A stretch of 64,000 nt of DNA from positions 3,019 through 67,018 of the forward strand of contig WYBL01000116.1 of the NCBI GenBank assembly GCA_011526565.1, in the 5' to 3' direction. The stretch comes from Acidobacteriota bacterium (GTDB lineage: Bacteria; Acidobacteriota; Vicinamibacteria; Fen-336). A program made the translations under genes and the position numbers. Every line of letters begins with the position of its first letter. Position 1 is the first letter of the stretch. This document shows positions 3,301-63,982 of the stretch, in pieces. The notes beneath the pieces are model-generated. The model searched no databases, had not been told where the DNA came from, and saw only the letters and a list, made by a program, of their open reading frames with translations.

Positions 3301-3353
3301 TTGCGCGAAAGTTGAAACGGGATTTCACTTTCGATATCAGAACGGAGATCTCG

Positions 3354-5744
3354 ATGAATCGCCCCCTCGCCCTGCTGACGGCCGTGCTGGCCGCCCTCCT
3401 CCCCGCCAGCGGGATCCTGGCACAGTCCACGGGCTCGGTCTCGGGCCGGGTCGTCGACGAGACCGGCGCGGTGCTCCCCTACGCCCGGGTCACCGTGCGG
3501 CTCGCCGCGCTCGGGTTCGAGAAGAGCGCGACGACCGACGAGGCCGGGCAGTTCCGGCTCGAGCTGCCCGCAGGCGCCTACGAGGTGACCGCGGAGATCG
3601 ACGGCTTCTCGCTGTCGCGCAAGAAGGTCGAGGTCGGCAGCCGGCCCGCCGAGGTGCGCTTCACGCTGCACCCCGGCGGCTTCGACGAAGAAATGACCGT
3701 GGTCGGCGCCAGCATCCTCGGCGGCCCCGAGACCGTGCGCCGGATACCGGGGTCGATCGAGGTGCTGCCGCCCGAGTTGCTCGAGTCGGCCCGCGTGCGC
3801 GACGTCTCCGAGGCGCTGCGCAAGGCCAGCGGCGTCACCGTGCGCGACGAGGAGGGCTTCGCGCTGCGGCCCAACATCGGCATCCGCGGCCTCAACCCGA
3901 CGCGCTCGACCAAGACGCTGCTGCTCGAGGACGGGTTGCCGCTGTCCTACGCGCCGTACGGCGACAACTCGAGCTACTACCACCCGCCGATCGAGCGCTT
4001 CGAAAGCGTGGAGATCCTGAAGGGCGCGGGGCAGATCAGCTACGGTCCCGTCACGGTCGGCGGGGTCGTCAACTACCTGACCCCCGAGCCGCCCCGCGAC
4101 CTGCGGGCCACCGCCCGCGTCACCGCCGGCAACCGCGACTACCTGAACGCCCACGCCAGTGCGGGCGGCACCTTCGGCCGCGCCGGACTGCTGCTCGACG
4201 TGATGCGCAAGGGCGGCGACGGCTCCCGCGACGCCGTCCACTCCGACCTCACCGACGCCACCTTGAAGGCCGTCTTCGCCCTTTCGACCCGCCACACCGT
4301 GACCCTGAAGGGCAACTTCTACGGCGAGGACTCGCAGGTCACCTACTCCGGTCTCCGGCTCGCGGAGTGGGAGGCCGACCCGCGCCAGAACCCGTTCCTG
4401 AACGACGACTTCACGGGCCGCCGCTTCGGCGTCTCGGCTCGCCACAACGCCCTCGTCGGCAGCGGCCTGCTGCTCTCGACCCAGGCCTACCACTCGACCT
4501 TCAGCCGCGACTGGTGGCGCCAGTCGTCGAACTCCGGGCAGCGCCCCAACGACGCGTCCGACCCGAACTGCCGCGGCATGGCCAACCTGCTGACCACCTG
4601 CGGCAACGAGGGCCGGCTGCGCGACTACGACACCACCGGCATCGAGACGCGGCTGCGTTTCGGCCACGGCCTGTTCGGCGCTCGCGGCGAGGCGGAGGTC
4701 GGCCTGCGCGCCCACTTCGAGGTGCAGGAGCGGATCCAGAAGAACGGCGACACGCCGACCGCCCGCGACGGCCGCGTCGTCGAGGACAACCGCCGCGAGA
4801 ACTCCGCCTGGTCCGGCTTCCTCCAGGAGCGCATCCTGCTGGGCCGCTTCACCGTCACGCCCGGCCTGCGCTTCGAGGCGATCGACTACGAGCGCACCAA
4901 CCGACTCGCCAACGGCGGCGCCGGCGCCACCGGCAGCACCTCGCTCACGCAGTGGGTGCCGGGCCTCGGCGTGGCGTGGAACGTCGACGACCGCTTCGCG
5001 CTGTTCGGCGGAGCGCACCGCGGCTTCGCCCCGCCGCGCACCGAGGACATCGTCAGCAACGCCGGCGGCACGGTCGACCTCGACCCCGAGCTGTCCTGGA
5101 ACTTCGAACTCGGCCTGCGTGGCGCGCCGCGCCCCGGCGTGCGCTTCGACGCCACCTGGTTCCGCATGGACTACGAGAACCAGATCGTGCCGGCCAGCCT
5201 CGCGGGAGGCCTCGGCGCCGCGCTGACCAACGGCGGCGCGACGCTGCACCAGGGCTTCGAGGTGGGCGCGCGGGTCGACAGCGGCACCCTGACGGGCAGC
5301 GAGCACAACGTCTTCGCCCGGCTCGCCTACACCGCCGTGCCGACGGCCCGCTTCGAGGGCGAGCGTTTCAGCAACGTGCCCGGTTTCGCGACCACCCGCG
5401 TCACCGGCAACCGCCTGCCCTACTCCCCCGAGCACGCGCTCAACGCGATGGTCGGCTACCGCCACCCGCGCGGCGTGCAGGCCCAGCTCGAGGCGGTGGT
5501 GACGAGCGCCCAGTTCGCCGACGACCTCAATACCGTCGCGTCTTCGGCGGACGGCCAGCGCGGCCGCATCGACGGCCACACGATCTGGAACGCGACGCTC
5601 TCGTACGACGTCAAGGCGCTCGACGGCAGCCTGTTCGTGGCCGTCAAGAACCTGACCGACGAGCTCTACCTCGCCGACCGCAGCCGCGGCATGCTGCCCG
5701 GCCTGCCGCGCCTCGTGCAGGCGGGCTTCGTCGCCCGTTTCTAG
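3354..5744 (+). CDS. TonB-dependent receptor with CarboxypepD_reg-like N-terminal domain
   Basis: Track ORF 3312..5744, with the start moved to ATG 3354 (signal peptide MNRPLALLTAVLAALLPASGILAQ). Contains GSVSGRVVDETGAVLPYARVTV (CarboxypepD_reg-like), a plug (ARVRDVSEALRKASGVTV..IRGLN) and a barrel ending ..VQAGFVARF. Confidence 0.85.
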   Translation: MNRPLALLTAVLAALLPASGILAQSTGSVSGRVVDETGAVLPYARVTVRLAALGFEKSATTDEAGQFRLELPAGAYEVTAEIDGFSLSRKKVEVGSRPAEVRFTLHPGGFDEEMTVVGASILGGPETVRRIPGSIEVLPPELLESARVRDVSEALRKASGVTVRDEEGFALRPNIGIRGLNPTRSTKTLLLEDGLPLSYAPYGDNSSYYHPPIERFESVEILKGAGQISYGPVTVGGVVNYLTPEPPRDLRATARVTAGNRDYLNAHASAGGTFGRAGLLLDVMRKGGDGSRDAVHSDLTDATLKAVFALSTRHTVTLKGNFYGEDSQVTYSGLRLAEWEADPRQNPFLNDDFTGRRFGVSARHNALVGSGLLLSTQAYHSTFSRDWWRQSSNSGQRPNDASDPNCRGMANLLTTCGNEGRLRDYDTTGIETRLRFGHGLFGARGEAEVGLRAHFEVQERIQKNGDTPTARDGRVVEDNRRENSAWSGFLQERILLGRFTVTPGLRFEAIDYERTNRLANGGAGATGSTSLTQWVPGLGVAWNVDDRFALFGGAHRGFAPPRTEDIVSNAGGTVDLDPELSWNFELGLRGAPRPGVRFDATWFRMDYENQIVPASLAGGLGAALTNGGATLHQGFEVGARVDSGTLTGSEHNVFARLAYTAVPTARFEGERFSNVPGFATTRVTGNRLPYSPEHALNAMVGYRHPRGVQAQLEAVVTSAQFADDLNTVASSADGQRGRIDGHTIWNATLSYDVKALDGSLFVAVKNLTDELYLADRSRGMLPGLPRLVQAGFVARF

Positions 5745-37540: not shown

Positions 37541-37603
37541 GATTGCCGATTCTTGGGTCTGCGCCCTCCCCGAGCGCGGCATCGGAAGGACTTCCCGCCC
37601 GCC

Positions 37604-39043
<1,440 letters not shown>

Positions 39044-39065
39044 CGGCAACAGGAATCGAAGAGAG

Positions 39066-39832
<767 letters not shown>

Positions 39833-39836
<4 letters not shown>

Positions 39837-41253
39837 GCACGGTGGAACCGGCCGCGCCGGACGCGACCACCCCGGCTCCGGCCCCCGCGGCCGCGCCGAG
39901 CGCTGTCGAGGTGCGCGAGACCCAGCGCGAGGCTTCACGGCGCGACGAAATCGCACCCTGGCTCGTGGCGCTCGAGGCGCTGCGCCGAAAGGGAGAGCCG
40001 GAGTGGCTGGCCGCGCAGCGCGACGACGCCACGGCCCGCTTCGCGCGCCTCGGCTTCCCCACCACCCGCGACGAGGCCTGGCGCCAGACCAGCGTCGCGG
40101 CGCTGGCGCGCACCCGCTTCGACAACGCGACCCGCGGCGCGCTCGACGACGCGCTCGAATCGATGCCCGCGTTCCGCTTCGGCGGAGCGTTCGCCGGCCG
40201 CGAGGCGGTGTTCGTCAACGGCCGCTTCATGCCCGAGCTCTCCAGCCTCGGCAAGCTGGCCCGGGTGCGGGTGCGACCGCTGCGCCAGGTGCTCGCGGAC
40301 GACCCCGACGCGCTGTGCGGCCTGATCGGCGCGGCGGCCGACGACGACAAGCACCCGTTCCTGGCCCTGAACCTCGCCGCCTTCCAGGACGGCGCGGTGG
40401 TCGAGGTGCCCGAGCGATACACGGTCCACGGCCCGATCCACCTGCTCTTCATCAGCACCGGCGGCGCGGCCAGCCATCCGCGGGTGCTGATCGGCCTCAA
40501 CCGCAACTCCCAGGCGACGGTCGTCGAGAGCTACGTCAGCCCGCGCGGCGCCCACTCGTTCTGCAACGCGGCCACCGAGGTGCTGCTCGGCGACGGCGCC
40601 GTGCTCGACCACGTGCGGCTGCAGGCGGAGTCGGAGAAGGCCTACCACGTCGCCACCACCGCGACCCGGGTCAGCCGCAGCGCCACCTACCGCAGCCACG
40701 CGCTGACGCTGGGTGCGGCTCTCTCCCGCCACGACCTCGGCGTGCGGCTCGAGGGCGAAGGCGCCGACGTCGAACTGCACGGCCTGTTCGTCTCCGACGA
40801 CGCCCAGCTCCACGACACCCACTCGAAGCTCGACCACGTCGCCCCGCACGGCACCTCGCGCGAGGTCTACAAGGGCGTGCTCGGCGGCCGCGCTCGCGGC
40901 GTCAAGAACGGGCTGATCGTGGTGCGCCCCGGCGCCCAGAAGACCGACGCCCAGCAACAGAGCCGCAACCTGCTGCTCTCGCGCGAGGCGCTGGTCCACG
41001 CCACGCCGCAGCTCCTGATCCACGCCGACGACGTCAAGTGCAAGCACGGCGCGACCACGGGCCAGATCGAGGACGCGCCGCTGTTCTACCTGCGGTCGCG
41101 CGGCCTCGACGAGGAGGCGGCCCGCGCGCTGCTGGTGTGGGCGTTCGCGGCCGACGTGGTGTCGAAGCTGAAGGTGGCGCCGGTCCGCGAGTCGGTCGAG
41201 CGCTTCCTGCGCGAGCGGCTGCCGGCGGCCGGCGCGGTGCCCGGGACCCGCGC

Positions 41254-41257
<4 letters not shown>
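39833..41257 (+). CDS. sufD: Fe-S cluster assembly protein SufD
   Basis: ATG 39833 overlaps the sufC stop (ATGA). The C-terminal beta-helix region (SRNLLLSREALVHATPQLLIHADDVKCKHGATTGQIEDAPLFYLRSRGL) is typical of SufD. Confidence 0.9.
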
Positions 41258-42506
<1,249 letters not shown>

Positions 42507-42507
<1 letters not shown>

Positions 42508-44461: not shown

Positions 44462-47047
44462 TCAATGCCAGAGCGCCTTGGCGAAACCGCGGGCGTCCCT
44501 AACGGACCGCCGGCCCGGCACCGCGGCAAGAGCGCCCCGAAGAAGACTCGCGAGCCACTCCGGTGTGCGGCTGGCGTCCAGGCGTGCGGGAGAGCCCTGG
44601 CGGACCGTGCGCAGCGTGATCTCCTCGGTAGCCCCCTGGAATGGATGGCTCCCTGCAATCGCCTCGTAGATCACGACCGCCAGCGCCCAGACGTCCCACT
44701 CGGGCGAAGGCGCCACGCCCTCCCAGGCTTCCGGCGGAAGGTAGCGGGGAGTGCCTGCGACACAACCTTCCTGGTCCGCAGACAGCTCCATGAGGTGCGC
44801 GAGGCCGAAATCCAGGAGCTTGGGCGGGCCGGCAACCTGGAATCCGACATTCCCCGGCTTGATGTCACGGTGGAGCAGGCCCTCATCGTGGAGGTCGGCG
44901 AGCGTCGTGGCCAGGGCGCGGCCGAGGCTGAGGCTGGCTTCCAGACCCAGCGGGCCCCGCGTCAGGCGGTCCGCGAGCGTCTCGCCCGCGAGGTACTCCA
45001 CGACCAAGAACGGCACGCCCTTCCAGGTTTCTGCCCCGAACAGGGTCGCCACGCCGGGGTGGTTGATCGACGCCATCACGCGCGCCTCGGATCGCAGCCG
45101 TGCCGCCAGTGCCGGGGACGATCGCGGGAGCGTCTTCAGGGCCACGGTGCGCCCGAGAGTCGTGTCTTCTGCCTCGTAGACGACGCCCATGCCACCCTGA
45201 CCGACGCGCCGAACCAGCCGGAACTTGCCCAGCGCGATGCGCGGCAAGGCCGCCTGCCGACTTCGATCGGCGCCGCACTCGCAGCGCGGTTCGGAGTGAG
45301 CGCGAACTCGCGTGCAGGCGTCGCATTCCAGACCCGGCTCGTCGTCCCACTCCCCGCCCTCGGCGGCGCCCGGCTGCGGCACGCGAGCGATCGCGATTCC
45401 CGCAGCGGACGCGAGACTGTGAGCGAGTTCCTGCGCTCCGCGGTCCCAAGGCTCCTCGGACACGCGTTCGCCGAGGGCCAGGATGGCCGCCGGCTGTCCC
45501 GTGCTGCCCATCACGGGAACGACCAAGGTCACGCCGAGGTCGCTGCTCCATGCACGGTCGTCGTCAGGGAGCAAGGCCAGGAGGCGCGGTGTGATCTCCA
45601 GCGGGCGCGGGTCGGCGTCGAGCATCGCCACGATCGCGCTGCTCGCACTGAGTGGCCGGCAGGCGGAATCGCCCCCAGCGAACGTGCCGCTCGAGTTCCT
45701 CGTCAGAACGCGAACCTGGGTCGCCCCCAACGACATCCTCACCTCGCCTGTGAGGGCCGCCGCGACGTCGCGCTGACCCCGGGCCGCGCTCAGCGCGGTC
45801 AGCAGGCGTTGCAGCCCCGCGCCGCGGTCTCCATCGCCACGCGAGAACAGCCGATCGAGCCCGGCCTGGATCGGCCTGCGAAGCACCCGCAGGACTGTCG
45901 AGAGCGCGAGGGCCGCCAGCAGGCCCTTGCCCGGCCCCGCTCCGAGCAACTCGGCGAGCGGTCGATGGCGCTCGGCGAACAGGTATAGGGCCAACAGCAG
46001 GGCTGGCAGGAACACCAGCAAGTGAAGCGTCGTGCGGGCCAGTGCATGAGAGAGCGCACGCCGCGCCAGGAGGCGGAGGCCGAGGACGCGGCCCGCCGCT
46101 ACGGCTGCAGCGGTCGTCACGGGCAGCGACAGGAGGCCTCCATAGACGATGGTGTCCGTGGCGGCCTCGTACCGATCGACCCAGCGCTCCGCACCCGGCA
46201 CCAGGACCGAAACCAGCGTCAGGAGTACGAGCGGCGCTAGGCCGACGAAGACGGCCACGACGAAGCCGGCCACCCGACGCCCCTCGTCGCCGCTGGCAAG
46301 CCGCGCCTTGCGCAGGGCCAGACGAGCTCCGAGGGCCATGACCGAGAACTGCGCGGCCCAGAACAAGCGACCGCGGCCGTCACCGCCGTCGCGGCCGACG
46401 ACGATCAGCGCCTCACCCAGCGGGCTACCCGAGGCCAGCACTGCAACCGGGGTCACCAGGAAGAGGAACAGACCCAGGGCCGCTGCCGCCTTCTCCAACC
46501 GGACCAGCCCAACCTGTGCCGGCAGGTGGGCTGGCGCGGCGGGGAATCGCAGCAGGAGCGCGAGGAAGGTCGCCGCGAGGAATGCGTCGGGCTGCAGGCC
46601 CGCAAGGAGCGATACGCCGCTGGCCGCGCCCGAAGTGGCGGCGGCGATCGGCCTCGTGGCGAACGTCGCCGCCACGACGACGTAGAAGACGCCGAGACGG
46701 ATCGCGCGAGGGTCGCGGTCTCCGGAGTAGAGGAGCGCGGCACCGGAAAAGCCGAAAACCAGGAGTGGTCCGATGAGTCCGAAGTCCGAGTTCGCGATCG
46801 CCAGCCCGAGCCCTGACAAAGCGCGCGTCGCAGCGAGTAGGCAGAGCAGGCGGAACCCGAGGGACAACGGGTCCGAGACCGAGGCGCTCGCCACCCTGGC
46901 TCGCGCCCGGACGTTTTCGGCAACCGCCTCGAGTACGGTCGCGGTTCGCGACGGCAGCGCGACTCCGCGGTAGGCATCGCGCCAGTCCAGCGGTGCGCCA
47001 TCGGCCGCCGCCGCGGCGAGCCGCACGAGCGCGCCCTCAGGCTCCAT
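44462..47047 (-). CDS. Ser/Thr protein kinase with C-terminal kinase domain, N-terminal polytopic membrane region, GAF-like domain and Cys4 ribbon
   Basis: ATG 47047 (MEPEGALVRL) overlaps the sigma gene stop by 11 nt; the track start 47065 is a TTG. There are about 8-10 hydrophobic helices, then a Cys ribbon ECDACTRVRAHSEPRCECG. Kinase motifs: GQGGMGVVY, VALK, HRDIKPGN, DFGLA, GTPRYLPPE. Confidence 0.85.
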   Translation of the reverse strand: MEPEGALVRLAAAAADGAPLDWRDAYRGVALPSRTATVLEAVAENVRARARVASASVSDPLSLGFRLLCLLAATRALSGLGLAIANSDFGLIGPLLVFGFSGAALLYSGDRDPRAIRLGVFYVVVAATFATRPIAAATSGAASGVSLLAGLQPDAFLAATFLALLLRFPAAPAHLPAQVGLVRLEKAAAALGLFLFLVTPVAVLASGSPLGEALIVVGRDGGDGRGRLFWAAQFSVMALGARLALRKARLASGDEGRRVAGFVVAVFVGLAPLVLLTLVSVLVPGAERWVDRYEAATDTIVYGGLLSLPVTTAAAVAAGRVLGLRLLARRALSHALARTTLHLLVFLPALLLALYLFAERHRPLAELLGAGPGKGLLAALALSTVLRVLRRPIQAGLDRLFSRGDGDRGAGLQRLLTALSAARGQRDVAAALTGEVRMSLGATQVRVLTRNSSGTFAGGDSACRPLSASSAIVAMLDADPRPLEITPRLLALLPDDDRAWSSDLGVTLVVPVMGSTGQPAAILALGERVSEEPWDRGAQELAHSLASAAGIAIARVPQPGAAEGGEWDDEPGLECDACTRVRAHSEPRCECGADRSRQAALPRIALGKFRLVRRVGQGGMGVVYEAEDTTLGRTVALKTLPRSSPALAARLRSEARVMASINHPGVATLFGAETWKGVPFLVVEYLAGETLADRLTRGPLGLEASLSLGRALATTLADLHDEGLLHRDIKPGNVGFQVAGPPKLLDFGLAHLMELSADQEGCVAGTPRYLPPEAWEGVAPSPEWDVWALAVVIYEAIAGSHPFQGATEEITLRTVRQGSPARLDASRTPEWLASLLRGALAAVPGRRSVRDARGFAKALWH

Positions 47048-47636
47048 CGCCCATCGCCTTCGCAAGCTTGGCGAGCGCGCGCGCCACGACCATCCGGGCC
47101 GAGTCCGAAGAGGGCTTGCCCAGTGCCAGCGCGATCTGCTCGTAGCTGTATCCCATCTCGACCCGGGCGACGACCGCCTGCTGCTCGGGAGCCGGCAACT
47201 CGGCCAGGGCGGCCTGGTAGCGGCCCCGAAGTTCGGCGTCGGCGAAGAGGGAGTCCGGCCCTGGCTCCCGGCTCGCCATCTCGTCGCCGATCTCGTCGAC
47301 AGGCGGCCGGCGCGCGGCCCGACGGACGTGGTCGCGAACCCGGTTGACGACGGCCGTGCGGAGGTACGCCCCCAGCGCGCCGCGTCGGCGCGCGTCGAAG
47401 CGATCGAGATTCCGGACGGCCCCGATCAGCGTCTCCTGGACGATGTCTGCGGTGTCGCCCAGCGCGCGCGCCCACCCCGGCAGCCGCCCGCGGGCGAACC
47501 GGAGCAGCCCGGGCATCTCCCGCTCCAGCAGCCGCTCGAGGGCGGAGCGATTCCCGCGCCGCGCCAGGCTGAGCAGGCGCACGGTGGTCGGGGCCGGGGA
47601 GAGAGGGGCCTCGGTCAAGGGATCACGACTCCGCAC
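47037..47636 (-). CDS. ECF-type RNA polymerase sigma factor
   Basis: Region 2 (ALERLLEREMPGLLRFARGRL..DTADIVQETLIGAVRNLDRFD) and region 4 (LPAPEQQAVVARVEMGYSYEQIALALGKPSSDSARMVVARALAKL). The start is uncertain: GTG 47636 is preferred and ATG 47717 is the track option. Confidence 0.8.
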   Translation of the reverse strand: MRSRDPLTEAPLSPAPTTVRLLSLARRGNRSALERLLEREMPGLLRFARGRLPGWARALGDTADIVQETLIGAVRNLDRFDARRRGALGAYLRTAVVNRVRDHVRRAARRPPVDEIGDEMASREPGPDSLFADAELRGRYQAALAELPAPEQQAVVARVEMGYSYEQIALALGKPSSDSARMVVARALAKLAKAMGDGA

Positions 47637-52585: not shown

Positions 52586-52977
52586 CCCTGCCGCCCGCGC
52601 GTGACCACCTCGACCGTGCCGCCGGGCCGCAGGATCAGCTCGATCCGCGCCGCATCCGAGACTTGAAGCACCTGAGTCCACCGCTCCGCCCTCCCGTCGT
52701 TCGACCAACTCACCGTCGCCTGCACGACGCCGGCGTGCGCCCGCACCCGGAGCCTCGGCCCCGTGCCCGTCTCGTGCCCGAGCAACTCGGCCCGCACGCA
52801 CGCCGCATCCACCCTCAGCGTGACGCCAGACGCAGCCCCCGGCCCGCCATTCACGACCTCGACGAGCACTCTGTCGCCGAGGAGGCGGGCGCCGAGCCGC
52901 GGCGCGGCGGCGAGCCCCGCCCCGACCACTGCGAGCGAAGCGACGGCCGCCCAGCGCAACGCCAGGTGGCCACTCAT
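52582..52977 (-). CDS. small signal-anchored protein of unknown function
   Basis: ATG 52977 overlaps the upstream TGA (ATGA). Sequence MSGHLALRWAAVASLAVVGAGLAAAP, then a beta-rich region of about 100 aa. The 89 upstream codons of the track ORF are Arg/Pro junk. Confidence 0.6.
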   Translation of the reverse strand: MSGHLALRWAAVASLAVVGAGLAAAPRLGARLLGDRVLVEVVNGGPGAASGVTLRVDAACVRAELLGHETGTGPRLRVRAHAGVVQATVSWSNDGRAERWTQVLQVSDAARIELILRPGGTVEVVTRGRQG

Positions 52978-54338
52978 GGCTTCTGGTAGCCGTAGAGCTC
53001 GCGTCGAGCGCCGGCAACCGGGGACATCCAGTCGTCGATCGGGAGACCGGGGAGCGGGCGGCCCCAGAGGTCGCCCCACCTCGCGCCTCGGAGGAAGCTG
53101 ATCGTCCAGCGCTGGACGAGATTCATCAGCGGGAGCGCGGCGTGCAGGGTCATGCCCTTGCGGAACGGGAGGTTCTCGCCGACTCCGAGGAACCCGCCGA
53201 AGTCGCGCTCCGCGACGCCGACCACGGAATCCCGGTCCGCCCACTCAGGAACCGCCCCGTGCAACGGCACGGTACCGTCGCCGAGGTTGTCGCGCCAGGC
53301 GTCGACGTCGGCCGGGGCCCCGTCTTCGCCGCGGTACTCCTGCGACTCCACGTCGAACGCGAAGCGGCCGTCGGCCGCCAGCTTCACACGATGCGCCGTG
53401 CGCTCGTCCAGGCCCACGATCAGCAGCCACTGGCCCGGCTCGGCGAGGGCCGCGCTCGGGTCCTCCTCGTTGACGCTCGCGAGGAAGCTGCGCCCGTCTT
53501 CGAGGCGCTCGCGGAGGTACTTCCACGCGGACTTCATGCGCTGCTCGGCGTTGGAGTTCCTGGGGTCGGTGCTGTGCGTCCGGATGAAGTCGGCGACCGA
53601 CTCGACGATGCTCTCCTGCCAGTTCTTCGCGTTGAAGATCGCCTTCCCCGAGTGCCCCGCCAGCGCTCCTTCGAAGTACGGCAACAGGTGGTAGATCGCG
53701 GGCGTCATGCGGGCCGCCAGGCGCTCGCTGTGCTGCGGCGAGCCGACCATCGAGCCTTCGCCCGTGGCCAGCTTGATCACCGCGTCGACCGCTCCCTGGA
53801 AGGGCGTTCCGATCGTCACCACGCGTCGAACCAGCGGCTTGCCGTTCGGGCCCTTGCAACCCTTGGCGAGAGCCGATGCGATCACCAGACCGCCCATCGA
53901 GTGGCCCACGAGGTCGACCGTCGTCGCCTTCTCTTTCGCGTAGCTCTTCAGGAGGTTGGTGCGGTCGATCACCTCGCGCACGAACTCGCAGAGCTGGTCC
54001 GCCACGACGCGGTTGTCGGCGCGCCAGTCGTAGGCGAACGGGAAGACGGGCACGACTGCCGTCGGCCCGCGATCTTCGCGCAGCGCCGATCGCAGCTCGC
54101 GGATGAACTCCGCGTAGCCCATCTCCGCCGCGTGCGAGGGGACGATCTTCGCCGGCTCCACCGCCTCGAAGCGCAGGTCGTCCGGGTGCATCGCGATGCG
54201 GTGGAACTCCTTGATCGGCCGCCAGCGCAGCGCCTCGATCCCGGGGTCCCAGACGACCTCGGGCGTGGTGGGATAGACGTCGCGGAGCACGGACCCCGTG
54301 ATCCCGTGGACGACGATCACCGGTGGCTGCACCTTCAT
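52974..54338 (-). CDS. alpha/beta hydrolase, LCAT/PGAP1-like lipase/esterase, no signal peptide
   Basis: ATG 54338 with GGAGGG 8 nt upstream. Oxyanion-loop start VIVVHGITGS, nucleophile elbow LVGHSMGG, and Asp region LGDGTVPLHG. Confidence 0.75.
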   Translation of the reverse strand: MKVQPPVIVVHGITGSVLRDVYPTTPEVVWDPGIEALRWRPIKEFHRIAMHPDDLRFEAVEPAKIVPSHAAEMGYAEFIRELRSALREDRGPTAVVPVFPFAYDWRADNRVVADQLCEFVREVIDRTNLLKSYAKEKATTVDLVGHSMGGLVIASALAKGCKGPNGKPLVRRVVTIGTPFQGAVDAVIKLATGEGSMVGSPQHSERLAARMTPAIYHLLPYFEGALAGHSGKAIFNAKNWQESIVESVADFIRTHSTDPRNSNAEQRMKSAWKYLRERLEDGRSFLASVNEEDPSAALAEPGQWLLIVGLDERTAHRVKLAADGRFAFDVESQEYRGEDGAPADVDAWRDNLGDGTVPLHGAVPEWADRDSVVGVAERDFGGFLGVGENLPFRKGMTLHAALPLMNLVQRWTISFLRGARWGDLWGRPLPGLPIDDWMSPVAGARRELYGYQKP

Positions 54339-54444: not shown

Positions 54445-56760
54445 TCAGGGGCGGCGCAGGGTCTCCAACGGGGCTTGCCGTGACGCGGCGACTGCCGGTG
54501 CCAGCGAGGCGGCGGCGGCGCACAGAAGGGTGAACGCCGCCGATGCGGTCAGCGTCGTGAGTTCGAACGACGCCCACTGGAAATGAGCCGACTCGGCCCA
54601 CTGGCCCAGCCACACCGAGACGAGGGTTCCGATCCCGATGCCTGCCATGGCCAGCGTCGCCCCCTCGGCCGCCATCAGGATCGTCAACTCGCGGGGCCCT
54701 GCTCCGACGACGGCCCGGACCGCCATCTCGAAGCGGCGCATCGCGGCGAGGGAGTACACGACGGCAGAGACGCCGACGAGCGCCGCCCCAAGGCCGACGA
54801 GGGCGTACGTGCCGAGCAGTCGCACCTGCGCCAGGAGCGGCGCCTGTGCTCGGGCGACGAGATCCCCGGCGAACACCAGGCCATGGACCGAGGGGCTCTT
54901 CGCCGTCCCGCTGACGGCGTGGATCTGCCGAGCGGCCTCGCCGCAATCGTGGCAGCGCACCAGCAACCACTCCTCGTCGGGGTGGCGACCGCGGGCCGGC
55001 CGACTGCGCGGCAGGTAGCACTGGGGCAGGGGTTCCTGGGCAGCATCGATGCCTCGTACCGGTGCGACGACGCCGATGACCTCGCGCAGGGCCAGTTCGC
55101 CCTCGATGCGGATCTGACGACCCACGGCCGCGACAGCCTGCCCTGGCCGCCGCCCCTCGTCGGCGAACGCCAGGATCAGTACGTCCGCGTCTCCCGGCGC
55201 GAAAGCCCGCCCGGCGAGCAGCCGGATCCCGGTCGCGGCCAGGAAGTCGCCCTCCACGTGCCAGACCTGACAGAGGACCCTCCCGGCCTCCCCGTCGATC
55301 CACACGCCCCCTGCTGACGCGACACCTGGAGGCGCAGACGCGGTCGCCGCGGCCGACACTCCGGGAAGTTGCGCGACCTCGGCCATCAGGGCCTGAGGCG
55401 AGGCGCCCAGGCGCCCGAGCAGCAGGTTCTTCGATTCGTAGCCCAGAGGAATCTCGAGTGCTGCTCTCAGGGTCCATGCGGAGACCAGCGCGCCGTTGAG
55501 CAAGACGACCGCGATGACCGTCTGACTGATCACCAGGAGGCGGCGCGTCCACCGCACCTGCCCTGTGGACGCTCCCCCGCCGTCCCGCAGGCCTTCCGAC
55601 GGAGCCGCGCGCAATGCAACGGCCATCGCGCCGGCGGATGCGAGGAGGACGCTCGGGAACGCCAGACCGAGAGCCGCCCCGCTCGCGACGGCGACGAGAC
55701 GCTCGAGCGGCGGCTGGTGGACCCACCAGGCCGCGAATATCTCGCGTCCGCCGACGATCGAGAGGGAGGCGACCAGCGCCCCCACGACGCCCACTCCGAG
55801 GGCGAGGGAGAACGTCTCGCTGCCGAGCTGCAGCAGGAGGTTTCGCCGCGTCGCGCCGAGAGCCTGCCGCACGGCGAACTCGACGCGGCGCACCGACATC
55901 CGACCCAGCAAGAGAGTGCCCAGGCTCGCGACGGCGGTACCCAGGAGCAAGCCCGAGAGCGCCAGGAGCAGCAGCGCGGGCGCTATCACTCTCTCGCGCG
56001 CCACGTCCACCATCGGCCGGACGAACACGCGCTCGCCGAAGCGCACCCCGGTGCTGCGCGTGTAGAGGGCGTGCAGGCCGTGCAGCAAGCCCCCCAGTTG
56101 CGAACGCGCCGACTCGATGCTGGTCTCGGGCCGCAGGCGCCCGACCCAGCCGTCGCGTCGCACCAGGCCGAACGGATCGTCGTTGCCTCGGGCCCGCCCT
56201 CCTGCACGCGTGCGTGGCGTCCAGATCTCGGTGCCTCCCGGGAAGTCGAAGCCCGCCGGGGCGACACCGACGACGCGGTGAAGGGTGCCTTCCAGCAGGA
56301 TCTGCGCCCCGAGCACGGCCGCCCCGGGACCGAAGTGCCGGTCGCGGAAGGCGGCGCCCACAACGGCCACAGGTTCGTTCGATCGATCCTCCTCGACGCT
56401 GAATGCGCGCCCCGGCAAAGGAACGACCCCGAACACGCTGAAGAAGGCGGCGGAGACAGCGGTGGTCCTGACCTCTCTACGGTGGCCGTCCAGTCGGACC
56501 TCGACGAGTCCGGTCTCGTAGGTCGCCAACGCCGCGAGGCTTCGCGCCTGCCCCCAGTACTCGACGGGGTCCCCGACGAGAGGGTGCGCCATGTTCCCGA
56601 GATGCACGATGCGGTCCGCCGCGGGCACCCCGAGCGGGCGCAGGACCAAGGCATCGACGGCGGCCACCATCGCGCTCGCCACGCCGAGGACGACCCCGAG
56701 GGCGATGGCGACGACGGCCGTACCGCGATGGCGAAGGGCGAGCCGGGCATCGAGGCGCAC
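54445..56760 (-). CDS. duplicated FtsX/MacB-type ABC permease (ADOP family-like), no cognate ATPase nearby
   Basis: GTG start. It has two FtsX 4-TM modules, each preceded by a large periplasmic MacB_PCD-like domain. The N-terminus RLALRHRGTAVVAIALGVVLGVASAMVAAVDALVLRPLG fits the acidobacterial duplicated orphan permease pattern. Confidence 0.8.
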   Translation of the reverse strand: MRLDARLALRHRGTAVVAIALGVVLGVASAMVAAVDALVLRPLGVPAADRIVHLGNMAHPLVGDPVEYWGQARSLAALATYETGLVEVRLDGHRREVRTTAVSAAFFSVFGVVPLPGRAFSVEEDRSNEPVAVVGAAFRDRHFGPGAAVLGAQILLEGTLHRVVGVAPAGFDFPGGTEIWTPRTRAGGRARGNDDPFGLVRRDGWVGRLRPETSIESARSQLGGLLHGLHALYTRSTGVRFGERVFVRPMVDVARERVIAPALLLLALSGLLLGTAVASLGTLLLGRMSVRRVEFAVRQALGATRRNLLLQLGSETFSLALGVGVVGALVASLSIVGGREIFAAWWVHQPPLERLVAVASGAALGLAFPSVLLASAGAMAVALRAAPSEGLRDGGGASTGQVRWTRRLLVISQTVIAVVLLNGALVSAWTLRAALEIPLGYESKNLLLGRLGASPQALMAEVAQLPGVSAAATASAPPGVASAGGVWIDGEAGRVLCQVWHVEGDFLAATGIRLLAGRAFAPGDADVLILAFADEGRRPGQAVAAVGRQIRIEGELALREVIGVVAPVRGIDAAQEPLPQCYLPRSRPARGRHPDEEWLLVRCHDCGEAARQIHAVSGTAKSPSVHGLVFAGDLVARAQAPLLAQVRLLGTYALVGLGAALVGVSAVVYSLAAMRRFEMAVRAVVGAGPRELTILMAAEGATLAMAGIGIGTLVSVWLGQWAESAHFQWASFELTTLTASAAFTLLCAAAASLAPAVAASRQAPLETLRRP

Positions 56761-56787
56761 GGGAGATGGTAGCGGCCCAGTGCGGCC

Positions 56788-57015
56788 CTATGAACGAGGC
56801 GCCGGCTCCCAACGCCCGGCACGGCAGACGAGGATGCTGCTCTGGCCCCTGATCAGAGCACCCTCGGAATACGTGGCCCCCTCGAACGTGCATCCGGCGG
56901 GCTTGGCGGCAGGCAGCCCTGGCGACTGGTCGGAAGCCCTCCAGAGGGCGAGGGCAGCCAACAGACTGACGATGCCCAGGACCCCGATCGCCAGACGGAC
57001 GTGCGGCTGCTTCAC
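56788..57015 (-). CDS. small anchored protein with 2-Cys ecto-motif
   Basis: GTG 57015 lies 3 nt after the upstream stop, with GGAGG 8 nt upstream. Sequence KQPHVRLAIGVLGIVSLLAALALW, then CTFEGATYSEGALIRGQSSILVCRAGRWEP. Confidence 0.6.
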   Translation of the reverse strand: MKQPHVRLAIGVLGIVSLLAALALWRASDQSPGLPAAKPAGCTFEGATYSEGALIRGQSSILVCRAGRWEPAPRS

Positions 57016-57018
57016 AGT

Positions 57019-57618
57019 TCACCCCTCCTGTTCGACGCCATCCTCACGTTGCAGCCCCGGCAGACGAACTCCGAAATAGGCCTCCACTTCGCCCTGCAGC
57101 GCACCCGAGAGAGCACCGCCCCATATCTTCTCGACTCGTCCATCGGCGCTGACCACGATGAGGGTCGGCGTGGCCGCGAGCCCGAACTCCTGCGCGGTCG
57201 GACGTTCGAGACCGACAACTTCGAACCCCAGCAGTGTTTCCTCTGCTGTCACCTTCTCGCGGGACGCGCTCAAGGAAAGCCCTTTGAACTGATATCGCCC
57301 CGTGCTAGCGGCGGCCAGGACGCGGATGTTCGCGAGATTGCGACGGCACCAGACGCACTCCTCGGACTGCACGTAGAGAACACTCGGCAGGGCGCCTCCC
57401 AGCGTGAGCGGTTGTCCCCGTCCGTGGCGATCGGTTACCGGGATCTCCGGAACTTGCCTGCCGACACTCAGGGCCTTGGGAGGTCGACCCCGGTCATCAG
57501 GTGGTTGCCTGAGCTTGAGGCCGAGACCCACATTCGCGGCAAGGGAGGCGCCCAAGGCGATGAGCAACAGCGCCACGGCCAGATTGCTGTCGAGAAGCCG
57601 ATCCATGCAGGCTCGCAT
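57019..57618 (-). CDS. membrane-anchored thioredoxin-fold thiol:disulfide oxidoreductase (TlpA/redoxin-like, CVWC)
   Basis: ATG 57618 with AAAGGAGG upstream. TM anchor LAVALLLIALGASLAANVGLGL, then SVLYVQSEECVWCRRN (CxxC), and ATPTLIVVSADGRV (cis-Pro region). Confidence 0.75.
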   Translation of the reverse strand: MRACMDRLLDSNLAVALLLIALGASLAANVGLGLKLRQPPDDRGRPPKALSVGRQVPEIPVTDRHGRGQPLTLGGALPSVLYVQSEECVWCRRNLANIRVLAAASTGRYQFKGLSLSASREKVTAEETLLGFEVVGLERPTAQEFGLAATPTLIVVSADGRVEKIWGGALSGALQGEVEAYFGVRLPGLQREDGVEQEG

Positions 57619-57654
57619 GGTGGCACCTCCTTTCCGGGGGCTGACGGGTGGCGT

Positions 57655-57682
57655 ACTCCGGCCAGCTGGCGCTGGCCGGAGT
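57655..57682 (-). terminator. perfect 12-bp stem / 4-nt loop hairpin between the peptide gene and the thioredoxin-fold gene (attenuator or mRNA-stabiliser candidate)
   Basis: ACTCCGGCCAGC tggc GCTGGCCGGAGT, read directly. It ends 8 nt downstream of the peptide stop codon (57691-57693). No U-tract follows on the minus strand. Confidence 0.55.
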
Positions 57683-57690
57683 ACAGGTTG

Positions 57691-57957
57691 TCAGCAGAGC
57701 TCGCAGGATCCCCAGGTTCCGTCGCTCTTGCACTTCTGGCTCTTGCCGCTCGAGCAGACGCTCTGGACGCAGGAACCGGTGCTGTAGCAGACACCTGCGT
57801 ACTGGCAGTTGCAGCTACCGCCACTGCCCCCGCCATCCCCAGGATCCTGGTAGTACGGCCCATCGGCCAACACCGAAAACGCGCCGCCGGCACCGACGAT
57901 CATCAGCAGCGTCAGCGCCAGGACGAATCCCCTTCGCGCCCGTCGTGTCCTTCCCAT
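57691..57957 (-). CDS. secreted 8-cysteine peptide precursor (88 aa)
   Basis: SD GAGGGAG upstream of ATG 57957. Sec-type N-terminus MGRTRRARRGFVLALTLLMIVGAGGAFSVLA, spacer DGPYYQDPGDGGGSGGS, and core CNCQYAGVCYSTGSCVQSVCSSGKSQKCKSDGTWGSCELC. Confidence 0.65.
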   Translation of the reverse strand: MGRTRRARRGFVLALTLLMIVGAGGAFSVLADGPYYQDPGDGGGSGGSCNCQYAGVCYSTGSCVQSVCSSGKSQKCKSDGTWGSCELC

Positions 57958-57979
57958 CGTTCACTCCCTCTGGCGGGCT

Positions 57980-58252
57980 CACCCGCTGGGCCAAGTGTAT
58001 ACCAAGGGGCCGCTTTTCGACACCCTCTAGTCGATCATGAGCCGCGGCACTGACGGGTGCCCGCGAGTCACGCCGGGTAAGGGTCCGGCGGCGGAGTGAA
58101 TCCGCCGGCGGATTCTCTGGCGTCTGGGCGGGAGGACTTGGGCCCGCCCTCCCACCCGCTGACAGTCTCCACCCCCAAGCCCCCGGGCGCACGCCACGTG
58201 GTCCCTGCGCCGGCGGGGTGTTGTCCACGGGCACAACCACCCGGCTGACAGT
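57980..58252. repeat. three copies of CACCCG(G)CTG in the 304-bp intergenic region upstream of the peptide gene
   Basis: CACCCGCTG at 57980-57988 and 58153-58161, the latter extended to CACCCGCTGACAGT. CACCCGGCTGACAGT at 58238-58252. The spacings are 173 and 85 bp. The region also holds GC-rich hairpins at 58089-58107 and about 58216-58243. Confidence 0.5.
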
Positions 58253-61306: not shown

Positions 61307-62518
61307 TCACCCCTCCGGGTTCACCTCGCGGACCAGGACCTTGGGCTCTCCCAGCAGATCCAGGTCCAACGTGAGCCTCGGCTGGCCGCCCGCGCGCGCG
61401 CTCGGATACACGAGCCCCGGGATGCGTTCGTCGCCGCTGCCCGCCACTTCGACCAGGAAGCCGCCCTGACCGGGATACACGACGAGAGCGCCCGGGTCGG
61501 CGTCGTCGAGGGCGACCACGCGATAGCCGAAGCGACCGGGATCGGCGTAGAGCTGTCGGGTGGTGATCGGATGATCGTAGGGGGTTCTCGGCAGCCCCTT
61601 GCCGCCATCCGCCGCGGCGGCCACGTCCAAGAAGACGTTGGCCGCATCGAAGCTCTTGCCTGCAACCTCGACCAGCGGCTCGACCCGATAGACCCGCAGC
61701 CACTTCTGGCACGCCGGACATTCCTTCTTGTCGGCCTCCTTAAGCGCGACACACGGTTCGGTCGGCGGAGCAGTGCAGACGTAGTAGAAGGCCGGGGCCG
61801 ACTGTGCCTCGGCAGCCGGGCCGGCGACCAGCGCGCCCGCGGTCAGGGCCAAGATCGGAGCCCTCCCGCCGGCGGCTTTGGCGATGGCGTTGATGAAGAC
61901 CTCGAGGACGCTTTTCAGGTTCTGGTAGAAGGTGGTCACGAAGAGGCCCGCGAGGAGCGCGAGCACCTGCCCTGCGGTCGTCGCCGTCGTGCCAGCCAGG
62001 AAGGCGAGCCCAAAGACGAGCCCGTAGCAGATCACTCCCGCCAGGGCCGCCAGGAAAAACGAAGCGAGCAGGCTCGGGAACGCCTGCTTGCCATCGGGCT
62101 GCAGGGCGCTGAGCCAGACCGACGCGCACCAACCGATCAGGCCACTGAGACAGAAGGCCGCGACCCACAAGCGCGGGTGCGGTCGCGACATTAGGAGGGT
62201 CCGAGCTACGGGCCGCTTCAGTTCGGCCGCATAGAGCTCCGGGAAGATGTGCCGTTGAGCAGCGTCCTCCTGGGTCATCTCGACGGCGCCGAGTCGTGTC
62301 GTTTCGTCGGGCCTCGGCGCGTGTTTGTCCCAGACTCGGATCGCCCAGTCGACCTGGGCGTAGAGCCAGACTGCACCCACGAACACGGCCACGGAGGCGA
62401 GCAACGTCCGGACCAAACGGTCTCGCTGAGACTTCTGTCGTCGCAACGCCGCACCTCCCGCGGACAGGGCCGGCCCTGGAACGGTTCGGGTATCATATAT
62501 ACGCTTTGCGTACCGCAT
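61307..62518 (-). CDS. polytopic membrane protein with C-terminal Cys-cluster domain, unknown function
   Basis: Track ORF 61307..62833 trimmed to ATG 62518 (MRYAKRIYDTRT); the upstream codons look non-coding and overlap a better + strand ORF. There are about 5 TM helices, then APAFYYVCTAPPTEPCVALKEADKKECPACQKW and a domain of about 120 aa. The start is uncertain. Confidence 0.6.
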   Translation of the reverse strand: MRYAKRIYDTRTVPGPALSAGGAALRRQKSQRDRLVRTLLASVAVFVGAVWLYAQVDWAIRVWDKHAPRPDETTRLGAVEMTQEDAAQRHIFPELYAAELKRPVARTLLMSRPHPRLWVAAFCLSGLIGWCASVWLSALQPDGKQAFPSLLASFFLAALAGVICYGLVFGLAFLAGTTATTAGQVLALLAGLFVTTFYQNLKSVLEVFINAIAKAAGGRAPILALTAGALVAGPAAEAQSAPAFYYVCTAPPTEPCVALKEADKKECPACQKWLRVYRVEPLVEVAGKSFDAANVFLDVAAAADGGKGLPRTPYDHPITTRQLYADPGRFGYRVVALDDADPGALVVYPGQGGFLVEVAGSGDERIPGLVYPSARAGGQPRLTLDLDLLGEPKVLVREVNPEG

Positions 62519-62527
62519 CGGCAACCG

Positions 62528-62923
62528 GTGGGTCCCGTGCCTGTACCGCTTCACGGACCGGAGCAGGCAGCCTCGGCGGCGGCCGGCAATGCGCTGGTGC
62601 TGGAAGCGTCCACGAAGTCTGCCGAGAAACTGGGGCGACACCTCAGCGCTTTTCACTTGAAGGTGAAGGCTCCTGACCGTGAGTTGCCCTTGGAGTCTGC
62701 CTTCCAGGGCAGCAAGGTGTTCGAACGCGGCGGCCCCTTCACGGATCTCTACGCCGCTGGGGCCGTGGATGCCAAGCGGGATCCTCGGCTGCGAGATTCG
62801 GGACGGGTCATTGCGTTCGATTTTGCGGGCCATCGCTTCCCGGTCGAGCCGCGCACCGCCTTCTACGACTGGCTCTACATCGACACGCGACGTCCACCTC
62901 CGCCCTGGTTCGGGGCCCTGTAG
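62528..62923 (+). CDS. small conserved-looking protein, family not identified (possibly truncated)
   Basis: This is the 3' two-thirds of ORF 62249..62923; GTG 62528 or 62537 are candidate starts. It is strongly protein-like (LPLESAFQGSKVFERGGPFTDLYAAGAVDAKRDPRLRDSGRVIAFDFAGHRFPVEPRTAFYDWLYI). It ends in a Pro-rich tail (DTRRPPPPWFGAL). Confidence 0.5.
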   Translation: MGPVPVPLHGPEQAASAAAGNALVLEASTKSAEKLGRHLSAFHLKVKAPDRELPLESAFQGSKVFERGGPFTDLYAAGAVDAKRDPRLRDSGRVIAFDFAGHRFPVEPRTAFYDWLYIDTRRPPPPWFGAL

Positions 62924-62995: not shown

Positions 62996-63982
62996 TCAGC
63001 CCTTGCGACCCAGCCGGGCAGCGGCGCGCTGCCGTTCCTGCAAGGTGGCCCGGATGTCGGCCTCGCGAAGAGGCAGGCGCTCCGCGATCAGCGCCTCCTT
63101 GAGAGCCTCGTCTCCCGCTCGAGTGACCTCGGCATGGCTCAGACCGCTCGCCAGCCGCGCGAGCTTGGTCCAGGGGGTGCCCTGGATCGCGAGAGGACCG
63201 AGCCGGGAGCGGAGCAACTCGGCGACCTGCTTCTGGCTCGGCAGCTCGTAGTGGAGCACGTCGTCGAAGCGCCGCAGCAGCGCAGGGTCCAGGATCTGCC
63301 CGTGGTTGGTGGCCGCGAGGATCAGGCTGTTCGAGTGATCCTGCTCGATCATCTTCAGGAAGCTGTTCAGCACGCGCCGGATCTCGCCGACGTCGTTCGT
63401 CAACCCACGCTGCGAGCCGATCGCGTCGAACTCGTCGAAGAAGTACACGCCTCGCGTCTGGCCCGTGGCGTCGAAGACCTGCCGCAGCTTGGCGGCGGTC
63501 TCGCCGAGCATTTTGGTGATCAGGCCGTCGAGCCGGATCTGGAAAAGCGGGAGACCAAGCTCGCCTGCCAGCACTGAGGCCGTCAGCGTCTTGCCCGTAC
63601 CCGGAGGGCCGACCAAGAGCAGCTTGCGGCGCGGCGTGAGGCCGTGTTCGAGAATGCGCCCGGCGTGACGCTGCTCGCGCAGCACCCGGGTGAGCTGCCC
63701 TTCCAGCTCGGGCGCCAGGACCATCTGGCCGAGGCGGCTCGCCGGATAGGACACCTCGAGGAGGTGCGCGAGGTCCCCGCGGGGTCGCGCGATCGGGACG
63801 GGAGATGCGGCCCCGCGCCGCCGCTTGGCGTCGTCGATGACGGCCCGCAGTTCTTCCGCGAGCTTCCCGTGCCCAAGCCGCGCCTCGTGAGCAGCAACCT
63901 GCATCGCCACGGAGAAGAACCGTTGGTCGTCCCGCTCGACGAACGAGTCGAGCAGTGCCTTGAGCTGGTCAGCGCTGGCCAT
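62996..63982 (-). CDS. classical AAA+ ATPase (CDC48/FtsH-type module) with ~100-aa N-terminal helical domain
   Basis: Walker A GPPGTGKT, Walker B VYFFDEFD, sensor-1 ILAATN, and Arg finger region DPALLRRFD. Only 18 nt of upstream sequence remain in the window. Confidence 0.85.
   Translation of the reverse strand: MASADQLKALLDSFVERDDQRFFSVAMQVAAHEARLGHGKLAEELRAVIDDAKRRRGAASPVPIARPRGDLAHLLEVSYPASRLGQMVLAPELEGQLTRVLREQRHAGRILEHGLTPRRKLLLVGPPGTGKTLTASVLAGELGLPLFQIRLDGLITKMLGETAAKLRQVFDATGQTRGVYFFDEFDAIGSQRGLTNDVGEIRRVLNSFLKMIEQDHSNSLILAATNHGQILDPALLRRFDDVLHYELPSQKQVAELLRSRLGPLAIQGTPWTKLARLASGLSHAEVTRAGDEALKEALIAERLPLREADIRATLQERQRAAARLGRKG

Follow-up and report, generated by a model that had tools for sequence, protein, structure and literature searches.

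Do the minus-strand genes at positions 54445-57957 of a 64,000-nucleotide stretch of Acidobacteriota DNA (assembly GCA_011526565.1, contig WYBL01000116.1; the whole stretch is hereafter the window) form a unit that makes a secreted, disulfide-rich peptide, or do they stand side by side by chance? The initial annotation, made from the letters alone, had proposed a peptide production and export locus with five features: a secreted peptide with eight cysteines, a perfect hairpin, a membrane-anchored thioredoxin-fold protein, an anchored protein of 75 amino acids (aa) and an orphan FtsX/MacB-type permease of the ADOP group. All five were found on the minus strand where it had placed them. In the source databases, the three small proteins are hypothetical and the permease is a putative ABC permease, and NCBIfam holds no model for the peptide, the thioredoxin-like (Trx) protein or the 75-aa protein. 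We find that the genes are a conserved functional string and not a chance adjacency, as their order recurs in distant relatives, and to this extent the proposal stands. Three further points had been absent from it: the 88-aa peptide and the 75-aa protein are remote paralogues, the invariant core of the string is the peptide gene together with the Trx gene, and the window locus exemplifies a cassette that occurs across the Acidobacteriota. That the two-gene cassette is real and functional we hold with high confidence; what its peptides do, and what the remaining genes contribute, can be stated with graded and lesser certainty.

The first gene of the string (57691-57957, minus strand) encodes the peptide as an 88-aa precursor, characterized through the open reading frame (ORF) listing, family searches, AlphaFold and the ratio of nonsynonymous to synonymous substitution (dN/dS). 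From an ATG start, behind the good Shine-Dalgarno (SD) sequence that had been annotated (GAGGGAG, 57964-57970), it reads MGRTRRARRGFVLALTLLMIVGAGGAFSVLA/DGPYYQDPGDGGGSGGS-CNCQYAGVCYSTGSCVQSVCSSGKSQKCKSDGTWGSCELC: an n-h-c signal ending in VLA/DG, a Gly/Pro/Asp linker and a core of 40 residues, one fewer than annotated, with the expected eight cysteines. Cleavage is predicted after Ala31 (the slash), with export through Sec. The n-region (residues 4-13, window 57930-57950) contains a string, RRARRGFVL, that resembles a twin-arginine (Tat) motif; we assume the Sec route because distant family members have single Lys or Arg residues only in this region. In the AlphaFold model the core (residues 50-88) consists of four short strands, with a predicted local distance difference test (pLDDT) score of about 85, and the module weakly matches VWC and FnI, small disulfide-stabilised binding modules. 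Pfam returns no match for the window peptide.

Conservation and dN/dS mark this small ORF as a real gene and rule out an artefact of high GC. The identical peptide is encoded by 16 metagenomic contigs, close variants (86-93% identity) retain all eight cysteines, and across three close relatives the peptide gene shows a dN/dS of 0.17-0.56, against 0.16-0.55 in the three genes beside it, so that the purifying selection which the initial annotation had named as a check is seen. A word-index protein search with the peptide returned only a 93% relative, and an exhaustive HMMER search was needed to recover the family: 14 clusters at E < 1e-3 among 1.8 billion representatives. The family is thus rare. 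All members are 76-93 aa long with a signal peptide that ends in an AXA-like site, and share the core motif C-x-Y-x-G-x-x-Y-S-x-G-A-C-[VI]-x-S-x-C...Q-x-C...G-x-W..C. Some carry just four cysteines, and by this comparison the window peptide is a Cys-enriched version within its family.

The Trx gene (57019-57618, minus strand; SD AAAGGAGG) encodes a 199-aa protein with a CVWC motif, whose annotated thioredoxin fold was borne out by structure prediction and profile searches. Its Pfam match to Thioredoxin_2 is weak (21.4 bits, below the 27-bit cutoff). The AlphaFold model (pLDDT 77 overall, above 84 over the domain) has its best Foldseek matches in ResA, FetE, CcmG, TlpA and SdbA (E 5e-9 to 1e-7), with Etrx2 also found and DsbE of Mycobacterium tuberculosis lower, at rank 39; in a profile search of the PDB, Etrx2, SdbA and ResA came up with E-values between 1e-7 and 1e-5. 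Both additions that mark the TlpA/ResA/DsbE-like fold, an N-terminal beta-hairpin and a central insert, are present. In an alignment of eight homologues, C88, C91, the T150-P151 cis-Pro loop and residues of the N-terminal transmembrane (TM) helix are invariant, the helix bearing the motif L..SL..N with polar residues S25 and N29. The active site follows YV-x-S-x-x-C-x-[WF]-C across homologues and YV.S..C-V-W-C-RRN in the window protein, which thus combines CxxC, cis-Pro and N-terminal anchor; the motif is present in 31 of the 31 matches of the genome scan described below. The modelled fold and these residues point to a membrane-anchored thiol-disulfide oxidoreductase of the ResA/TlpA/SdbA type.

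In which direction would this enzyme work? Its fold class mixes reductases (ResA, CcmG, TlpA) with oxidases. Before its second active-site cysteine it has an aromatic residue, a typical trait of enzymes that oxidise or isomerise, for example DsbC (CGYC), and Asn replaces the equivalent of ResA Glu80 (C-x-W-C-R-R-N); together these residues hint that the enzyme oxidises or isomerises. SdbA forms disulfides in secreted proteins (PMC5112981), and both SdbA and M. tuberculosis DsbE have been noted as oxidases, the fold itself not fixing redox direction (PMC10783030).

Downstream of the Trx gene, on the same strand, follow a DUF1496 gene of 75 aa (56788-57015) after the annotated gap of 3 nt, the 771-aa ADOP-type permease (54445-56760) after 27 nt and an LCAT-like alpha/beta hydrolase (52974-54338; Pfam LCAT E 3e-12) after 106 nt. 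We compared this order with the loci of relatives, referred to here by L numbers. In every locus of the peptide family (hereafter family A) with flanking DNA, namely the window clade, L021, L022, L023, L033, L035, L048, L058/L062, L060 and L063, the Trx gene accompanies the peptide, and the gene-order conservation that had been set as a check is thereby found. L001, with 93% peptide identity, contains peptide, Trx, DUF1496, ADOP and hydrolase genes behind different upstream genes, and L018 (83% Trx identity) the same string from peptide to ADOP. At 43% identity and much lower GC, L023 still encodes the peptide, a Trx protein (CKFC), a 69-aa DUF1496 protein and a 766-aa ADOP. L021 has the peptide, a Trx protein (CAWC), DUF1496 and then a glycosyltransferase, with no ADOP, and L022 the peptide and a Trx protein (CGWC) only. 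L027, from Terriglobales, reads ADOP, peptide-like ORF, Trx, DUF1496, ADOP and a second peptide-like ORF. A metagenome scan with hand-made degenerate DNA patterns gave nine matches, four of them true peptide-family loci (L058, L060, L062, L063), each with the Trx gene downstream of the peptide; in L058/L062 DUF1496 and ADOP genes lie upstream on the opposite strand, which keeps the four genes together in divergent order. The DUF1496-ADOP pair thus recurs in the window clade, L023, L027 and L058/L062. Among the other matches, L056/L061 encodes a larger protein with a weak peptide-profile match only, and the remaining three are chance.

How far does the pairing of a Trx gene with a Cys-rich peptide extend? 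In front of two Trx homologues at 39% identity, P0004 and P0005, lies in each case an unrelated small signal-peptide ORF, with 8 or 6 cysteines. A degenerate DNA pattern encoding [LVF]YV-x-S-[PE]-x-C-x-WC-x-x-[ND]-x-x-N was run across a set of 185,579 species-representative genomes. All 31 matches are metagenome-assembled genomes of Acidobacteriota, and all 31 belong to the true Trx family (E 1e-19 to 1e-59); they span Terriglobia, Bryobacterales, Solibacteraceae, Pyrinomonadaceae, Blastocatellia and Vicinamibacterales. Cys-rich ORFs, defined by a hydrophobic segment followed by a tail of 28-95 aa with at least six cysteines, lie directly upstream of the Trx gene in 19 of the 31 loci (downstream in one case). 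In the same loci, 25 such ORFs occur in the 37 kb beside Trx genes and 3 in the 430 kb elsewhere. The 12 loci that fail the rule comprise five that are cut off upstream, two with family-A peptides of 4-5 cysteines (L027, L048) and five genuine negatives.

The peptides themselves belong to at least four families with unrelated cores, A (DUF1496-like), B, C ('SCTCGGG...') and D ('CC..S.DCPG...'), plus singletons; none of the Cys-rich families has a Pfam match, and Cys counts are mostly even across them. Tandem paralogues are found in L024 (three copies) and in L032, L037 and L038 (two each). The L024 locus (991-2701) arranges its three paralogous peptides, of 8-10 cysteines, around one Trx gene, and L039 (oriented 1813-3917) places three tandem Trx paralogues between two Cys-rich ORFs. 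Despite their unrelated cores, families A, B and C share a common signal, M-x-L-[KR]-x-K...L-P-x-L-A-L-x-A-Y-F-L..P..A-x-A (L024, L029, L040, L042, L047, L053, L022, L021); such peptide signals and the Trx TM helix with its S25 and N29 might recognise each other in the membrane. The downstream partner co-varies with the peptide family. Family C goes with secreted proteins of about 630-650 aa (such proteins occur in L036, L042, L047, L048, L050 and L053) and family D with proteins of about 510 aa (about 490-525 aa in L025, L034, L037, L041, L043 and L049), both directly 3' of the Trx gene and both without a Pfam domain. A DUF3738 protein takes that position in L012-L017, L033 and probably L031, and other loci carry DUF3738 or ADOP downstream.

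These data bear on the reading that the locus is a periplasmic redox or metal module, in which a TlpA/ResA-type reductase keeps the peptide reduced for Cu/Fe binding or for scavenging oxidants and the ADOP serves as an envelope transporter. Unrelated, hypervariable cores beside a conserved enzyme would be unexpected for a metal site, although CxC and CxxC spacings do occur in several peptide families. The mostly even Cys counts and the compact, confidently modelled beta core speak for disulfides, and nothing in the vicinity encodes a metal permease, a chaperone or a His/Met-rich motif. Most of the best structural matches of the Trx protein (ResA, FetE, TlpA, CcmG) are reductases; its active site differs, however, in the Asn for the ResA-type Glu and in the aromatic residue discussed above. 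The Tat-like RR-G-F-V-L string in the window peptide signal would also suit such a module, and there is a precedent in the Campylobacter fet cluster, where membrane thioredoxins are found together with an iron-uptake ABC transporter (PMC10783030). On balance we regard a reducing, metal- or oxidant-handling module as improbable, and disulfide formation or shuffling by a dedicated enzyme as the better reading.

What, then, is the 75-aa protein? It scores above the Pfam gathering threshold for PF07383 (23.2 bits against 20.2), is exported and has two cysteines and an N-terminal hydrophobic segment that serves as signal or anchor. Its motif C-T-F-E-G-A-T-Y-S-E-G-A-L...C-R-A-G-R-W matches the core motif of the peptide, with which it shares C-x-[YF]-x-G-x-x-Y-S-x-G-A...C...G-x-W, whereas the window peptide has six cysteines more than its two-cysteine neighbour. 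An hhalign comparison of the peptide family with the 75-aa protein gives E 2.5e-5 at 75% probability, and 3 of 16 peptide-family members weakly match PF07383 (best E 0.016), the window peptide itself falling below the threshold. From the hhalign match and the sub-threshold Pfam scores, the peptide is a remote relative of DUF1496, and not a member by the curated criterion; the two proteins are then remote paralogues. L056/L061 encodes a protein of roughly 235 aa with an N-terminal DUF1496-like motif (YSGDTYSAGSCIATYC) and a PEP-CTERM-looking C-terminal segment, and the small module therefore also exists fused to larger exported proteins. A profile search of the genome contigs with the alignment of the 75-aa family yielded no confirmed relative, so the window's own species seems absent from that collection. 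A DUF1496 member on pOXA-48 plasmids is abundant, highly expressed and N-terminally processed (bioRxiv 10.64898/2026.07.12.738056). In the literature searched, nothing links DUF1496 to Trx or ADOP genes.

The permease has two MacB_PCD and two FtsX regions in one polypeptide, without a fused or adjacent ATPase, as is characteristic of ADOP proteins. It aligns end-to-end with TIGR03434 (residues 12-769 on model positions 16-801, E 4e-96) at 322.8 bits, short of the curated NCBIfam cutoff of 622.3, and is on this basis a divergent member of the ADOP superfamily. The absence of an ATPase partner, as annotated, is confirmed for the window: its sole ABC ATPase is SufC (39066-39836), which belongs to a suf operon 15 kb away, and the permease is therefore an orphan. 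A nucleotide-binding domain (NBD) protein, an HlyD-like/MacA adaptor and a TolC-like outer-membrane factor are likewise lacking in the neighbourhood; such partners may lie elsewhere. ADOP genes also flank the cassettes of L023, L027, L035, L044 and L058/L062, and their association with the cassette is either old or repeatedly re-created. No paper on the cassette, on ADOP function or on DUF3738 was found in the literature searched.

The LCAT/PGAP1-like hydrolase (454 aa as called in relatives) follows the ADOP gene in L001-L004 and is absent there in L018 and L023, which confines it to the window clade and places it outside the conserved module. It has no signal peptide and is probably cytoplasmic. 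The arrangement recalls YbbAP-TesA, which pairs a permease with a lipid hydrolase (PMC12646458). We reject a partnership of that kind here, given the missing signal peptide and the conservation in the window clade only.

Between the peptide and Trx genes lies the stem-loop (57653-57684, minus strand), studied by folding, shuffling and alignment of relatives. It is stronger than annotated, with a perfect stem of 14 bp and not 12 (GTACTCCGGCCAGC-GCCA-GCTGGCCGGAGTAC, 4-nt loop), and starts 6 nt past the peptide stop and not 8. For the 81-nt region the folding energy is -43.9 kcal/mol (z -5.0), and a stem of such length arose in 0 of 500 shuffles. Rfam and tRNA scans of the whole window gave no match, so the hairpin is not a known RNA, and a search of the window showed no dispersed repeat of its sequence. 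L001 and L018 keep the stem; three of the four loop positions vary there, and one stem pair has changed from T-A to G-C by compensation. To survey other loci we used minimum free energy z-scores, since a test for the longest perfect stem misses imperfect hairpins (4 of 26 loci positive). Over the first 90 nt or fewer after the peptide gene, 26 family loci average z -1.58, with ten below -2; length-matched segments inside Trx coding sequence average -0.05, with 0 of 25 below -2. A stem-loop between the structural and downstream genes is thus recurrent, not universal and non-homologous across loci. It could plausibly act as a partial terminator or as a stabiliser of mRNA 3' ends that sets stoichiometry.

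Upstream, the peptide gene has a conserved 5' leader (57958-58003, minus strand), identified in a three-way DNA alignment of the window, L001 and L018. Synteny with both relatives ends just upstream of it, beyond which the genes of the window and L001 differ, and homology begins about 45 nt before the peptide start codon; the module therefore begins there. The leader holds a TGGTATAC element (57996-58003), possibly a -10 region with a promoter role, and a sigma-70 consensus scan found nothing. Directly 5' of the peptide SD is a GC mini-hairpin of 5 bp (57973-57986), kept in L001 and L018 with differing loop and register, which may have a role in translation or stability. Between the window and L001, synonymous divergence reaches 0.18 in the peptide gene (2579-2845 in L001) but only 0.013 in Trx, 0.05 in DUF1496 and 0.03 in ADOP. 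Because the peptide gene exceeds its neighbours in this measure and the upstream genes differ, either quicker turnover of the peptide gene or a recombination boundary close to or at the hairpin is suggested.

The wider window adds context. The segment is, as annotated, lower in GC than the first 40 kb, but the difference is modest (0.67-0.71 against 0.70-0.76). A 328-aa AAA ATPase (62996-63982, minus strand) matches IetA of the Ietas anti-phage system (PADLOC E 1e-70), the window ending before the position of any IetS partner, and an ORF at 62249-62923 (plus strand) corresponds to a gene of L002/L003 with a NADAR-DarT1 Pfam match; the cassette therefore adjoins a variable, defence-type region. 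Farther away, the suf Fe-S operon (37553-42507, plus strand) comprises a SufB/D-type gene (37553-39043), the SufC gene and a class-V aminotransferase/SufS-like ORF (40003-42507) that is probably over-extended at its 5' end. A large minus-strand ORF (44462-47065) ends in a Ser/Thr protein kinase domain (Pfam Pkinase E 5e-37).

Does the locus belong to a described class of peptide system? The initial annotation had seen no enzyme that modifies ribosomally synthesised and post-translationally modified peptides (RiPPs), and none was found within about 10 kb: LanM/LanKC, YcaO and radical-SAM proteins have no Pfam match among the genes at 52.9-62.8 kb, nor among precomputed Pfam matches in the L002-L004 neighbourhood. 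The locus is thus outside the enzyme-defined RiPPs. Of the features of class II bacteriocins, a thioredoxin-like accessory gene beside the structural gene is present; the double-glycine leader is not, nor is any C39 or ABC exporter encoded within about 10 kb. The pediocin loci pedABCD/papABCD offer a close parallel: they encode a small secreted peptide with cysteines, another small protein, an accessory with CxxC and a thioredoxin fold (PedC) that ensures correct disulfides, and a membrane transporter (PMC4919988). Their leader is of the double-glycine type, however, their exporter is a C39-peptidase ABC protein and their peptide has two disulfides and YGNGV, whereas here we see a Sec-type signal, an ATPase-less duplicated FtsX/MacB permease and four putative disulfides without YGNGV, in a diderm acidobacterial host; PedC is comparable by shared fold alone. 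Bacteroidetocins (proposed class IIf) likewise come from a Gram-negative host, with a Cys peptide beside a dedicated thiol oxidoreductase required for toxin activity, in four-gene loci that include a membrane protein and a transporter and have strain-variable flanks (PMC6671954); they differ in the GG leader, C39 ABC transporter and four cysteines, against a Sec signal, eight cysteines, a DUF1496-like fold and an ADOP.

The enterotoxin STII shares the Sec signal, periplasmic disulfides (through DsbA) and the implication of a MacB-family permease in onward transport by MacAB-TolC (PMC5985334). It relies, though, on housekeeping DsbA and a complete MacA-MacB(NBD)-TolC assembly, in contrast to a dedicated oxidoreductase and a permease that, within the window, lacks NBD, adaptor and outer-membrane partner. 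Sublancin (sunA-sunT-bdbA-sunS-bdbB) and BlpG(St) are further cases of dedicated thiol-disulfide oxidoreductases within a bacteriocin operon (cited in PMC4919988); sublancin is glycosylated and has the DsbB-like partner BdbB, and the locus here shows neither such a partner nor a modifying enzyme. As the defining features of the bacteriocin classes are absent, the locus works like those systems without being a member. What sets it apart is its dependence on Sec, the 3-6 putative disulfides, the DUF1496-like fold of the present case, restriction to Acidobacteriota and the recurrent link to an orphan permease.

Taken together, we consider it fairly probable that the four genes form an envelope module in which a Sec-exported, disulfide-knotted mini-protein is made with its own folding enzyme, likely as an effector in competition. 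Transcription would start just upstream of the peptide gene, and the hairpin would probably stop or stabilise most transcripts, raising the peptide message above that of the downstream genes. The 88-aa precursor would pass through Sec and be cut after VLA, to give a 57-aa product with a flexible Gly/Pro/Asp tail and the 40-aa, eight-cysteine beta module related to DUF1496. The CVWC protein, with the fold and active-site motifs described, would form or shuffle the four disulfides. More speculatively, the DUF1496 paralogue and the ADOP, as partners specific to certain lineages, may act on the mature peptide in the envelope, either protecting the producer or expelling the peptide from the periplasm, and both roles would need an ATPase encoded elsewhere. 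Producer protection has precedents in the MacB/FtsX superfamily, in BceAB-type resistance and in YknWXYZ against SDP. The specific role of the ADOP is the claim in which we have the least confidence.

Given a conserved enzyme beside hypervariable Cys-rich cores, a bacteriocin-like effector of competition is the most likely role for the peptides, and the tandem paralogues, family-specific partners and defence-type surroundings are likewise toxin-like features; an antimicrobial or competition function as such we nevertheless put forward tentatively, judging from sequence features. A signalling function appears highly improbable. Under it the peptide would be a ligand, and DUF1496 and ADOP a BceAB-like sensing module relaying to a regulator elsewhere, but no kinase or regulator is conserved beside the module, the upstream genes differing between the window and L001, and hypervariable cores with tandem paralogues fit effectors better. 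The weak likeness to VWC and FnI and the hydrophilic peptide would agree with a ligand, and FtsX/MacB permeases can sense peptides and work by mechanotransmission, as in BceAB and FtsEX (PMC5985334).

Several observations weigh against the four-gene effector reading, in addition to the reductases among the structural matches. Typical bacteriocins are cationic, whereas the mature peptide, with a net charge of about -2, is slightly acidic as well as hydrophilic, and the Cys count is odd in a few family members. Five scanned loci (L026, L030, L034, L043, L051) have ample upstream DNA yet no Cys-rich ORF. No re-oxidising partner (DsbB or VKOR) was seen in the locus, and an outer-membrane route, comprising adaptor, TolC-like protein and ATPase, is not encoded nearby. 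The hairpin has no U-tract, a terminator consensus scan making no call for want of a T-run, and it is absent as such from most loci (10 of 26 positive). ADOP paralogues are numerous in Acidobacteria, only a minority of the 31 Trx loci have an ADOP, most having a DUF3738 or 500-650-aa secreted protein in its stead, and the cassette-linked ADOPs are highly divergent from one another, those of the window and L023 sharing no significant BLASTP similarity.

The points on ADOP, together with L021 and L022, which lack it, would fit a functional unit of peptide and Trx, perhaps with DUF1496, to which ADOP and hydrolase are unrelated neighbours by virtue of high ADOP copy number. Against such coincidence, the ADOP gene stands next to the cassette on the same strand, separated by short gaps, in the window clade, L023, L027 and L044, lies just upstream in L035 and is linked to DUF1496 in divergent order in L058/L062. 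It accompanies the cassette in roughly five of nine independent family-A lineages, where a rough estimate of the chance expectation is a few percent. We judge a unit without the ADOP unlikely, if worth bearing in mind, and retain the four-gene module as the preferred reading for this locus.

What would such a system mean for these bacteria? Acidobacteriota are among the most abundant bacteria in soil, and to our knowledge neither their means of competition nor the functions of most of their lineage-specific families, ADOP, DUF3738 and DUF1496 among them, are known. Dependent on Sec and set in a diderm host, the locus would parallel those bacteriocin loci of Firmicutes and Bacteroidetes that are assisted by an oxidoreductase, and it provides a testable first hypothesis for a subset of ADOP permeases and DUF1496 proteins. 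The folding enzyme also offers a genome-mining handle for stable, disulfide-knotted mini-proteins as candidate antimicrobials or binders. More conjecturally still, the cassettes may represent a phylum-specific, hitherto undescribed system of Sec-exported mini-proteins with 3-6 disulfides and dedicated oxidoreductases, evolving in the manner of conotoxins or defensins, with DUF1496 plus ADOP, DUF3738 or the 500-650-aa proteins serving in immunity or handling. If true, the mini-proteins would be bacterial effectors of a new class, antimicrobial or serving competition, and the large orphan ADOP and DUF3738 families would gain their first functional context.

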